Source: Bacteroides fragilis
Lineage (GTDB): Bacteria; Pseudomonadota; Alphaproteobacteria; Rs-D84
Assembly (NCBI GenBank): GCA_963630775.1
Contig: CAVGNU010000006.1
Span: forward strand, 1 to 57,699
Direction: 5' to 3'
Length of the DNA: 57,699 nt
Made by a program: the position numbers. Shown here piece after piece: positions 36,001-39,000 of the stretch; position 1 is the first letter of the stretch, and the number at the start of each line of letters is the position of its first letter.

Positions 36001-39000
36001 TGTCGGCATGACATACCATAAATCGGTGGGAAAATTGCTGTGCCACATGTGCGGGCGTACTGCGCCAATGCCAAACAAGTGCCCCGACTGCGGCGGCGAT
36101 GTATCAACCCGTGGCGCGGGCTTGGAAAAGATAGCCGAAGAAGTGTCAGTCCGTTTCCCATCGGCGCGCACGGCATTGGTGTCCAGTGATACAATTTCAT
36201 CGCGCCAGTCATTGGAACGCTTGGTCGCAAAAATGGAAAACGGCGAAATCGACATTGTCATCGGAACGCAGATTCTGGCCAAGGGGCACCATTTCCCGAA
36301 CCTGACGCTGGTTGGGGTGGTGGACGCCGATATGGGGCTGTTTGGGACCGATTTCCGTGCCGCCGAACATACGTTTCAGCAATTATTTCAGGTTGCCGGT
36401 CGCGCCGGCCGTGGTGAATTTCCGGGGCGGGTATTGATGCAAACGTACCAACCCGACCATCCAGTGCTGACGGCGATATGCGCGGGTGACCGCGATGCGT
36501 TTATGGCATCTGACATGGCGGCGCGCCGTGCGGCGGGAATGCCACCGTTTGGTCAACTGATTGCGGTTGTTGTAGAGGGGCAAAAGGAATCCGTATTAAA
36601 GGGGTTCTGTGATGCATTGGCGGCGGCCGCACCGATTGCCGCGGGCGTAAAAATCATGGGCCCAATCGCGGCGGGCGTGTATCAAATCAGAAATTGGTAT
36701 CGTATGCGTTTCTTGGTCGCGGGCGGTACAACAACAATGCTGCAACCGGTTGTGTCGCATTGGCTGGCCAAGGTAAAACAACCCGCCAACATTCGGGTCA
36801 AGGTTGACGTGAACCCACAAAACTTTATGTAATTTTTTAATTTTCCACTGGATTTAATTTGCGTATTTGTTTAGCATACCTGTTGACACAGGGTGTTTCT
36901 GTGTCGGGGATTCAAGACCCCTGGAAACCAGCGTCCACGTGACGATAAAAGGAACTCCAACGCCTATTGCGGGTTGGAGGGCTGTGAATACATCGAATAA
37001 ACACGCTATAACTGGTTTTATAGTCTTGAACCTCCAACCACCTAAATTTTTTGGTGGTTTTCTTTTGTTCGCGATACAGAAAAAAAAGGAGAGAACAATA
37101 TGAAACCAATGAAAATAATTTGCACGCTTGCATTTTGCATGGGGATTTTGTCCGCGCCCGCATACGCCGCATCAACCTGCACAGCAACGCTGACTGATTC
37201 GACGACCAGTTCAACAACGTCAATCGAAAACTGTACAAATGGTGAAAAATACCGTTGGAAAAACAGCAGTGGTACATATGTAACGGTTGAATCATGCTTG
37301 GATTGCTCGAATGGTTATACATTGACCGAAGATGTTTCTTATTCACATTGCACAAATAAATTCACCCGTGGGGTATGCGCAAAAGTATGCACCGCCGAAA
37401 CCATAAAAGAAACCAGTATGCCCGATGGATGCACGGGTCGGACCGCATACGCCAAGAAATTTGGCGATACAGAGTATGTTGAATGTACAGAGTGTGCAGC
37501 CGGCTACAAGGAGGTTCAGAACACAATTTCGTCCAGCCAGTGCACCAACACCACCACCCAGTATGCGTGCGAGGTTGACCCCGACGCCGAATGTACGACA
37601 GACAGTGATTGCGACGAATACAGAGGCAAAACCCTGTATGGCCCCGATTCCAGCGGAGTAATTGGCGTGGGCGATGTGGTCTGGTGTTCTTCTGACGGTA
37701 CATGCGAGTATGATCTATACTATCAATGTGCCCGTGGCTACTATGGTGGCAGCGGTTATTCGTTGGGCAGCGTTACTTGTACTGCATGTCCATCCGAAGA
37801 TGGCGGCATTCCAACAACCACGAGTGGCACTGGTGCAATGGACATCACGGACTGCTATGCGCCAAAAGATATTGCAGGCAACGGTGTGATCGGTACATAT
37901 AGCTTTATGCAAGATTGTAAGTATTCCGATAACTAAAAACGCCCCGTTTGGGGCATTTTTAACGTTGGCTTTCTGATAGATATTTCTGGGTCAATACGGC
38001 CCGTTTGGTGCGATGTGCCAACACCCTGAATTTGAACGCGCAATCCAGTAATTTGTCGGTCAGACCCACGCGATTCAATCTTGCTTCTTCGCGTTTTTCG
38101 GCCTGACGCAATTTTGCGGTACTGTATTCTTCCAATTTGCGACGCATATCGGGCGAAATCAAATCCACCGTGCGGTCTTGTATGATGATTTCATCTTTGT
38201 CCATAATATTTTCCTTTTTTATTTTTGATTTTATTTTCTATACAACCTCGGTCACGGCGCGCAGTGCACCGTCACGCGACAGTTGTACAACACGAATTTT
38301 CTGTTTCATTTCGGCAATTAAATCCGTGCGGTTGTATGCGGGTTGTGTGTGCAAGATTCGGTCTGCAAATGCGGCGTATGCGGCATCGGCGGATTCAGCG
38401 TGAATGGTTGTGTAAAAATGATCGTGTCCCGTTCCCAACATTTCCCACAGTACCGCCGCATTGTCGGTTGAAATTTCGCCACCAATAATAACATCAGGCG
38501 TCATACGTACCACCAAATCCAGCAGACGGGCATAATTAAACTCGTTTGTCTGTTCCGTACGCGACAGAACAAAATGCACGCGGTTTGGTTGCGGCACGCG
38601 AATTTCGCGCGCATCTTCCACCGTAATCACACGACTGTTTTGGTCAATCAGTGTCAGCATGTGGTTCAAAAATGTTGTTTTACCGGTTGCGGTTGCGCCA
38701 CTGATTAAAATCGGGCTGCCATCATTTATGGCAGACATCAGACGGTCGTACGGATCATCGGGACGCACCTGTTCGCGTGGTTTAACCTTTAACAACTGTT
38801 GCCCACGCGCCAGATGATAGTTTGCAAATGATGTGTCGGATGCCCCCGTACCACGAATATTCAGTGCCACGCCCCCCGTGACATCGTTGTCGTCATATTG
38901 AACGTTTGGGCCCGCAATCGCGGTAAAGCGGTGACTGCCCGGCAGGGTTGCATACACCACCGGCACACCGTGAATTGGATCAAATGGTTGTTCATAAATG

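Follow-up and report, generated by a model that had tools for sequence, protein, structure and literature searches.

Structured 5' leaders with two mutually exclusive folds in gut Alphaproteobacteria of the order Rs-D84: probable transcription attenuators around an sRNA-Xcc1-like domain

The stretch of DNA analyzed here (hereafter the window) comprises 57,699 nucleotides (nt) of contig CAVGNU010000006.1 from assembly GCA_963630775.1, deposited as Bacteroides fragilis and placed by GTDB in the alphaproteobacterial order Rs-D84, and it carries four copies of a structured 5' leader, each followed by a co-oriented gene. Three of them (A, B, and C) had been proposed from inspection of the sequence as a three-copy family; all three lie where the original prediction had put them and share a mean column identity of 64% in their alignment, and the total has to be raised to four since a further copy, D, was retrieved with a profile built from relatives (Table 1). 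The pattern ACCACC-N(4-12)-GGTGGKTTT occurs three times in the window and in none of 100 shuffles, and the fold z-scores of A, B, and C against shuffled sequence are -4.6, -5.1, and -6.3, respectively. The assignment of the downstream genes was likewise correct, as copies A and C precede paralogous Cys-rich secreted proteins (33% identity, E = 9e-17) and copy B precedes a regulator of the XRE family with a helix–turn–helix (HTH) domain. The protein encoded downstream of A had no match in Pfam, and copy D ends 31 nt upstream of its family-6 glycosyltransferase (GT6) gene.

When GTDB genomes, one for each species, were scanned for the exact pattern, 60 loci turned up, of which about 45 lie in uncultured Alphaproteobacteria of the gut, in Candidatus Enterousia, and in metagenome-assembled genomes labeled 'Rickettsiales', which belong to the order Rs-D84, and a second pattern applied to metagenomes supplied extra members of the subtype to which A and B belong. 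With nhmmer profiles, the window and all collected loci (numbered with the prefix L) yielded 70 elements, copy D included; the anticipated homologs thus exist, in about 70 relatives, and they display covariation in both of the folds described below. Two subtypes can be told apart. Type 1 comprises C, D, and most loci, with UAUACAACAGG...CAAAG in hairpin H1 and usually a GGA in the apex of the first hairpin, P0, and type 2 comprises A, B, L045, and L061-L076, with an H1 apex of the form (A/U)AUACAU.(G/A)AAUAA and the P0 apex GUGUU. Both types share a genome in the window, L022, L023, L040, and L060. Copy A has an ortholog in L074 and copy B has orthologs in L062, L063, and L072, all with the same downstream genes; in L063 and L072, leader and HTH gene are orthologous to B as a pair. 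To our knowledge, nothing has been described of gene regulation in the Rs-D84 gut Alphaproteobacteria, and our literature search found no paper describing the Rs-D84 leaders. Members of this order have genomes below 1 Mb and are thought to be partner-dependent (PMC12306168).

A TATAAT/TATACT-like hexamer occupies a fixed position a few nt 5' of P0 in 38 of 43 type-1 and 16 of 17 type-2 elements, usually with a TTG-type -35 element about 17 nt upstream, so that the -10 box proposed a few nt before the leaders has a counterpart in 54 of 60 relatives. The corresponding hexamer of copy A is weaker and was not called by a strict sigma-70 scan. At the other end, about 41 of 51 elements have a co-oriented gene with a Shine–Dalgarno sequence that starts 15-52 nt past the terminator; in five more (glycosyltransferase/LicD cases) the distance is about 120 nt. 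As in an attenuator, transcription from the promoter would meet an intrinsic terminator before it reaches the ribosome-binding site of the gene, which has the same orientation, and because the gap between terminator and gene is short and leaves no space for a separate promoter, the gene must be read through the terminator. About 22 of the downstream products are signal-peptide proteins with 9-28 cysteines, and the others include OMP_b-brl/Opacity-like, GT2, GT6, WbsX, RgpF, LicD, PAP2, and small HTH proteins, a gene set that looks like a cell-surface regulon.

Structures were derived from nhmmer profiles, RNAalifold, and pair counts on MAFFT alignments, using for type 1 an alignment (A2) of 40 sequences from which the variable hairpins between P2 and P4 had been cut out by hand, and for type 2 a set of 13 sequences. 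RNAalifold returned a single consensus on A2, the terminator fold (Fold 2), consisting of a 10-bp P0, the helices P1 and P1b, the hairpin P2, the hairpin P4 formed by segments c and d, the hairpin H1, and the terminator abutting P1. Together, P1 and P1b make up a long-range helix of about 20 bp that closes the whole structure (GGGGaUUCAAGAC...GUCUUGAAcCUCC plus AACCAG/CUGGUU); in type 1, P1 is formed by GGG../..CCC plus UAGAAAA/UUUUCUA and continued by P1b. Within type 1, 92.9% of the cells are paired and 38 of the 56 pairs show double (compensatory) changes, values that none of 500 shuffles reached, and slid controls were 36-49% paired. The counterpart of P2 is compensatory at six of its six pairs in this subtype. 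Type 2 gives the same covariation picture, with compensatory pairs in P1 (6/12) and P1b (5/7). The terminator stem also covaries, reading CCGCC/GGCGG in D and L030b and CCGC/GCGG in L023. Conserved nucleotides concentrate in the junctions and in the H1 internal loop (UAUACAACAGG / CAAAG). The order of elements originally proposed is amended by this fold, in that the P4 hairpin stands, the long-range P1/P1b helix had been overlooked, and the supposed 'P2' hairpin (GGGG...CCCC) turns out to be only a local pairing of segments a and b that competes with P1 and P1b. Similarly, the 'GGTGGT.ATATACA box' is a conserved element, as claimed, which actually forms the 5' half of H1.

H1 is common to this structure and to a second, antiterminator fold (Fold 1), in which a pairs with its alternative local partner b, d pairs with e over 9-10 bp, and a hairpin, H2, is formed with the 3' strand of P1b as its loop. 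In copy A, d reads GGTTGGAGG as DNA (36972-36980) and e reads CCTCCAACC (37031-37039); the 7-nt 5' arm of the terminator begins with 4 nt that e also contains, and d:e thus takes four of the seven terminator base pairs. The repeated P4 arms, and the near-copy that overlaps the 5' arm of the terminator, are exact in the sequence as first described. The further claim, that d pairs with either c or e and that d:e destroys the terminator, is upheld by the relatives. In type 2, d:e pairs without exception (100%) in all 13 sequences and has two compensatory pairs (124:182, with GC in 10 and UA in 3, and 122:184), and H2 exists as CUAUA/UAUAG and as CAAUU/AAUUG, three of its six pairs being compensatory (pair 156:173 is UA in 7 and AU in 6). 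In type 1, d:e shows double changes at four pairs, namely 126:217 (AU in 14, GC in 8), 127:216, 128:215, and 122:221. Across lineages, c, d, and e change as a triple, from CCCGAC / GUCGGG / CCCGAC to CUCCAAC / GUUGGAG / CUCCAAC, CUCCUGAC / GUCAGGAG / CUCCUGAC in L022, and CUCCUGUC / GGCAGGAG / CUCCUGCC in L040. The d:e pairing and the triple changes place an alternative helix that overlaps the terminator stem under selection. Type-1 c segments have drifted only toward G.U wobbles (C to U in 17/40, A to G in 12/40) and d is invariant, as expected for a strand with two partners. As a rule, c is the weaker mimic, a poorer partner of d than e is. The duplex d:e outweighs c:d in 41 of 50 parsed elements; this parse is noisy, as duplex folding was used to pick out the three segments automatically and misassigned about 10 of 50, so that only the aggregate trend was used and cases were checked by eye. 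Both folds are under selection and they are unable to co-exist, which confirms the logic of a switch.

Energetically, Fold 2 is predicted to be more stable by 7-24 kcal/mol across the leaders, which points to OFF as the default. Forcing d:e costs a mean of 14.8 kcal/mol against the minimum free energy (MFE) in the full leader and 9.6 kcal/mol on transcripts ending before the 3' arm of the terminator, the corresponding costs being 8.5 and 6.7 kcal/mol for copy A and 15.3 and 10.8 kcal/mol for copy B. The P1/P1b helix strongly favors the terminator fold, and since transcription completes the 3' strand of P1b at a time when H2 is still unable to close, the kinetic default should be the terminator fold as well. 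The comparison shows the family, its two folds and their exclusiveness, the overlap with the terminator, and the association with the genes; from these features we infer that the switch operates in vivo, in which direction it does so, and what kind of effector it answers to; the leaders are, in our estimation, probably cis-acting transcription attenuators that are flipped by a trans-acting factor. Each downstream gene would have its own promoter, with transcription starting at P0. In Fold 2 (OFF), P1 and P1b would close a multi-branch core of P2, P4 (c:d), and H1, e would be held by a, and the intrinsic terminator would form directly 3', with P4 acting as an anti-antiterminator. In Fold 1 (ON), a would pair locally with b, H2 would capture the 3' strand of P1b, and d would leave c for e, producing a three-way junction of d:e, H1, and H2 at the expense of four of the seven terminator base pairs. 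The default outcome would be termination just before the ribosome-binding site. With OFF as the default, ON requires that the 5' strand of P1/P1b be withheld or that the three-way junction be strongly stabilized, and read-through would need a trans-acting factor, most likely a protein, that either withholds this early strand or clamps the junction, thereby co-regulating the cell-surface regulon in these gut symbionts with reduced genomes.

One lead toward such a factor comes from the P0 apex, which contains GGA in 34 of 40 type-1 sequences and, among type 2, only in L065, A and B having none. Its commonest type-1 form is CACAGGGAUGUG (alignment A2 columns 14-27, e.g., window positions 25138-25150), located 13 nt before the GGGA of segment a. 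The consensus selected in vitro for CsrA is RUACARGGAUGU, and we take CACAGGGAUGUG to resemble a CsrA-type site. A CsrA-type dimer bridging the P0 apex and segment a would withhold a; against this stand the type-2 leaders, which are without the motif, and the csrA gene, which was not found in the roughly 0.65 Mb of the window and the loci. It was also observed that GGGA recurs in the P0 apex, a, and d, and UCCC in b, c, and e; b (UCCC), which is unpaired in the terminator fold, could dock with the P0 apex.

The architecture is equally that of a terminator-platform metabolite riboswitch, with a structured, covarying 5' domain and exclusive terminator and antiterminator helices, and a new metabolite- or ion-sensing class, whose ligand would bind at the junction and the H1 internal loop and shift the balance between the two folds, is an alternative that we consider unlikely. 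The multi-branched core is aptamer-like, is most conserved precisely in the junctions and the H1 internal loop, and is followed by a terminator-type expression platform, and a conserved leader ORF (open reading frame) is lacking. No known class matches, as the original prediction had stated: nothing scored at the Rfam gathering level, and permissive scans of A, B, and C returned no riboswitch family. However, no common theme of metabolism or transport links the downstream genes, whose products are surface proteins, glycosyltransferases, and HTH regulators. The closing helix of about 20 bp imposes a bias of 7-24 kcal/mol, beyond what a ligand usually offsets and unlike the marginal P1 of known riboswitches, and the two subtypes differ in H1 and in the P0 apex within one genome. 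The far greater stability of P1/P1b compared with a ligand-gated P1, the gene set without a metabolic theme, and the presence of two subtypes with different apical motifs in one genome are the reasons for which we favor a protein or a transcription complex over a small molecule. Of the riboswitch or attenuator logic originally put forward, the terminator/antiterminator switch is retained; a small molecule as effector, which we consider unlikely, would make it a riboswitch in the strict sense.

Known protein-dependent attenuators, such as the ribonucleic antiterminator (RAT) targets of BglG/SacY, ANTAR targets, HutP, and PyrR/TRAP-type systems, offer parallels to a factor-driven attenuator. They too have a promoter-proximal leader with a terminator before the ribosome-binding site, an antiterminator that overlaps the 5' arm of the terminator, and a terminated default, and one factor can serve many operons. 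Unlike the single RAT hairpin or dual hexaloop hairpins, the antiterminator of the leaders is a three-way junction of about 90 nt, and it is accompanied by the extra decoy strands a, b, and c and by the 20-bp long-range helix. Processive antitermination (RfaH/ops-JUMPstart, Bacteroides UpxY, LoaP, EAR RNA, HK022 put) resembles the leaders in acting on surface genes through control of termination in the 5' leader, and the genes controlled here encode glycosyltransferases for lipopolysaccharide and other polysaccharides, outer-membrane proteins, and secreted surface proteins. Unlike processive systems, the leaders would, on paper, need no more than a local antiterminator helix. Inspection by eye revealed no ops-like element, although no dedicated search was made, the Rfam scans gave no match to EAR RNA, and tblastn found no NusG paralog in the roughly 0.65 Mb of the window and the loci.

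A known Rfam family was rejected as the identity of the leaders, as Rfam 15 scans of the window, of A, B, and C, and of their relatives assigned them to no family at gathering score. The only significant match below threshold was that of type-1 leaders to RF02221, sRNA-Xcc1 (threshold 53 bits), with 44.8 bits in L023 (E = 5e-7, local search), 39.2 in L005, 38.1 in L034, 30.0 in copy C (over 25261-25341), and 29.8 in L013; copies A and B, of type 2, gave only noise and no RF02221 match at E<=10. While a confident family was absent, as expected, the likeness of the antiterminator fold to RF02221 had thus been overlooked. The RF02221 model aligned end to end (positions 1-87), with all three helices, to d:e, H1, and H2, which correspond to its closing helix, first hairpin, and second hairpin. 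Both structures are three-way junctions with a 9-bp G+C-rich closing helix GGyCGGG...CCCGrCC followed by ACC, a first hairpin whose 5' side carries the internal loop AUACAA(U/C)A and whose 3' side carries the loop (G)AA(A), with an inner stem of 3 bp, and a second short hairpin followed by a U-rich joining strand; H1 of copy A is the counterpart of the AUACAA internal loop as it is seen in type 1. The Xcc1 copies, like the leaders, are located upstream of and co-oriented with genes and can be multicopy. Unlike RF02221, all leaders score below 53 bits, type 2 bears its AUACAU motif in a terminal loop, and the Xcc1-like motif constitutes only the 3' half of a unit of 180-230 nt. In the favored leader fold the Xcc1 shape is not formed, with the upstream mimics a and c occupying its closing strands, and there is a separate terminator downstream; the sole promoter-like site precedes P0, 90-130 nt upstream of the motif. 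In contrast to the integron and phage copies of Xcc1, the Rs-D84 leaders are chromosomal and adjoin housekeeping genes, none of the window copies resides in an integron cassette, transposon, plasmid, or prophage, and blastn of the RF02221 consensus against a plasmid collection gave no match. We class the leader family as undescribed, one that misses the RF02221 threshold and shares its fold, and as an attenuator around an Xcc1-like domain.

RF02221 occurs in Xanthomonas integron cassettes, prophages, Xylella, E. coli, and the APSE phages of Hamiltonella. In 2011, sRNA-Xcc1 was reportedly presented by Chen as integron-encoded and trans-acting, and we know of no mechanism for it. In X. campestris it is a free RNA of 88 nt, detected at about 88-100 nt on Northern blots, with ends mapped in Xanthomonas only (PMC2996969). 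Matches have been placed upstream of symE, a toxin gene, in the commonest Xanthomonas integron cassette (bioRxiv 10.1101/2025.06.18.660453) and upstream of an ORF6N gene in the APSE phages, and Xylella has seven copies, five of them in an array with a period of about 385 nt on a genomic island (PMC12189769). The discrete size and mapped ends of this related RNA lend some plausibility to a reading of the leaders as a multicopy small RNA (sRNA) that acts in trans or sequesters a protein, in which the terminated RNA of 180-230 nt would be the functional product and the gene would be expressed by leaky read-through. A default terminator fold with a rod-like closing helix would give a stable RNA, and the GGA of the P0 apex, in the CsrA-like setting of CACAGGGAUGUG, would suit protein sequestration. 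We nevertheless hold this alternative to be improbable, given that nearly every copy is co-oriented with a gene whose Shine–Dalgarno sequence lies 15-40 nt past the terminator, without space for a separate promoter, that the selection on d:e and H2 would have no role in a simple sRNA, and that conserved single-stranded stretches occur only inside H1, with no target complementarity found. A trans role of the terminated RNA could co-exist with the cis role.

Several points weigh against attenuation by a trans-acting factor. Termination, read-through, and the start of transcription are all predicted, and Fold 1, being 7-24 kcal/mol less stable in these models, might remain unpopulated at all times. 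Only a few of its pairs covary, because the cores of d and e hardly vary; in addition, the search pattern had partly determined the type-1 e segment, and H2 shows no covariation in the 40 type-1 sequences, in which it is invariant and thus uninformative in this respect. On the side of the alignment, the variable P2–P4 region of A2 was removed by hand, and MAFFT introduced a one-column register shift in P1 for nine sequences, which lowers the paired percentage and does not raise it. With tblastn, the roughly 0.65 Mb of scattered DNA formed by the window and the collected loci gave no match to CsrA, Hfq, RfaH, or NusG, and no candidate effector gene emerged from it. Finally, sRNA-Xcc1 was detected as a free RNA and has been called trans-acting (PMC2996969), so the terminated leader could itself be the functional product.

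Ribosome-mediated attenuation through a leader peptide, for instance one sensing the supply of Cys-tRNA, was rejected for want of a conserved ORF and is in our view highly improbable, even though the 1:2 / 2:3 / 3:4 logic of the segments resembles trp-type attenuators and copy B contains in P0 a mini-ORF encoding MVCCCCGV, which reads MACCRCGV in the orthologs. Among 40 type-1 and 13 type-2 sequences no start or stop position is shared (at most 11 of 40 type-1 sequences fall into the same start bin, and stops are scattered), the mini-ORF of B is without a Shine–Dalgarno sequence, conservation follows base-pair covariation and not a reading frame, and many downstream genes are not Cys-rich. The mini-ORF itself is not conserved elsewhere in the family, and we judge it to be a chance occurrence. 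A repeated or mobile DNA element without RNA function, such as a miniature inverted-repeat transposable element, a repetitive extragenic palindrome (REP)-like repeat, or a cassette boundary, was suggested by the presence of several copies per genome scattered among housekeeping genes (priA, parC, lgt) and was rejected as scarcely credible because of the compensatory changes throughout (38/56 pairs) and the strict orientation and distance to downstream genes, to which the fixed places of promoter and terminator and the lack of any visible terminal inverted repeats or target-site duplications can be added.

These leaders look like a new and well-supported family of large regulatory RNAs (about 200 nt), in which two maintained exclusive folds, decoy strands, and a terminator form a testable design, and the family appears to define a surface-gene regulon in uncultured gut Alphaproteobacteria. 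It also supplies a functional context for the Xcc1 motif, annotated as sRNA-Xcc1 in many proteobacterial genomes, phages, and integron cassettes and corresponding here to the antiterminator form that a 5' leader can adopt. By extension, the Xcc1 copies that precede symE and ORF6N may have a role in cis as well, and the placement of Xcc1 before symE and in Xylella would agree better with leaders acting in cis on small genes than with a trans-acting sRNA. More speculatively, and with considerable doubt, the sRNA-Xcc1 fold could be, instead of a trans-acting sRNA, a domain for antitermination in cis that is widespread and recruits a universal partner (RNA polymerase, as HK022 put RNA does, or a ligand). 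In Rs-D84 it would have been turned into a decoy-strand master switch of dozens of genes for surface antigens, glycosylation, and the outer membrane, the two subtypes, with their different P0 and H1 apices, answering to two signals. If true, an organism with very few transcription factors would possess a programme, based on RNA, for changing its surface.

Table 1. Coordinates of the leader copies, their segments, adjacent genes, and other features (window positions unless a locus is given)
Feature	Position	Strand	Sequence or product	Basis or remark
Copy A (type 2)	36885-37066	+		Three-copy alignment, fold, sequence
A, putative -10	36872-36877	+	TAGCAT (weaker)	Same distance from P0 as in relatives
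A, hairpin P0	36885-36905	+	GACACAG-GGUGUUU-CUGUGUC	MFE; 6/7 pairs compensatory in type 2
A, long-range helix, 5' strand	36906-36931	+	a GGGG; P1 5' strand UUCAAGAC; b CCCC; P1b 5' strand AAACCAG	MFE
A, hairpin P2	36932-36944	+	CGUC-CACGU-GACG	MFE fold, type-2 pair counts
A, hairpin P4	36955-36980	+	c CUCCAAC (36955-36961); d GGUUGGAGG (36972-36980)	
A, hairpin H1	36981-37006	+	Conserved AAUACAU...AAUAA apex	Stem covaries in type 2
A, hairpin H2	37006-37023	+	CUAUAA-CUGGUU-UUAUAG	Excludes P1b (shared strand)
A, 3' strands of P1b and P1	37012-37035	+	CUGGUUU (P1b); GUCUUGAAcCUCC (P1)	MFE
A, segment e	37031-37039	+	CCUCCAACC	Partner a (terminator fold) or d (antiterminator fold)
A, terminator	37036-37066	+	AACCACC, 10-nt loop, GGUGGUU, U-tract	Arms 37036-37042/37053-37059
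Gene downstream of A	37100-37936	+	278 amino acids (aa), signal peptide, 23 Cys	Translation
Copy B (type 2)	45575-45402	-		-10 is TATAAT
B, segments	c 45508-45501; d 45497-45489; e 45438-45430	-		
B, mini-ORF	45570-45544	-	AUG GUG UGU UGC UGU UGC GGG GUG UAA	
B, terminator	45433-45408	-		Followed by U-tract
Gene downstream of B	45028-45375	-	115-aa XRE-family HTH protein	Pfam HTH_3, E 1.1e-11
Copy C (type 1)	25128-25357	+		
C, segments	c 25248-25254; d 25261-25270; e 25324-25333	+		
C, terminator	25330-25350	+		Followed by U-tract
Gene downstream of C	25392-26489	+	365-aa Cys-rich secreted protein	
Copy D (type 1)	1873-1661	-	d/e GGUUGGGG/CCCCAACC; terminator CCGCC/GGCGG	nhmmer E 2.7e-25, profile from relatives; part of alignment A2
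Gene downstream of D	763-1629	-	Family-6 glycosyltransferase	Pfam Glyco_transf_6, E 6.5e-23
tRNA-Ser (TGA)	462-551	-		Rfam
tRNA-Leu (TAG)	27022-27106	-		Rfam
tRNA-Glu (TTC)	30207-30281	-		Rfam
tRNA-Asp (GTC)	31129-31205	-		Rfam
Tandem type-2 leaders	L060:7578-7996	-		
Divergent type-2 leader	L022:5667-5882	+		
Divergent type-2 leader	L022:7806-7591	-		
Second structured element	L021:5229-5350; L015:2370-2490; L034:1825-1945			Also in L047 and L055

The four tRNA genes were the sole matches above threshold when the window was scanned at Rfam 15 gathering scores. The window copies adjoin priA, parC, a tRNA methyltransferase-like gene, and lgt/tRNA-Ser, and the window otherwise carries housekeeping genes, among them parC, priA, an lgt-like gene, and genes for an MCRA oleate hydratase and a T2SSE/PilT-like ATPase.

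Among the collected loci, L060 contains two tandem type-2 leaders about 260 nt apart, neither of which is followed by a convincing ORF (only ORFs of 41 and 73 aa without a Shine–Dalgarno sequence lie downstream), and these may be decayed cassettes or stand-alone RNAs. In L022, two divergent type-2 leaders stand before paralogous Cys-rich secreted proteins of 267 and 274 aa, and beyond their terminators the sequences are identical, an indication that cassettes of leader plus gene were recently duplicated or underwent gene conversion. A second structured element of about 95 nt, without a match in Rfam, was observed between the leader terminator and RgpF, GT2, and LicD genes. It consists of a closing helix GGGUGGrUG...CnCCACCC, two inner hairpins, and a conserved GUUGUUUGAAC, and the closing helix covaries between the forms of L021 and L034.

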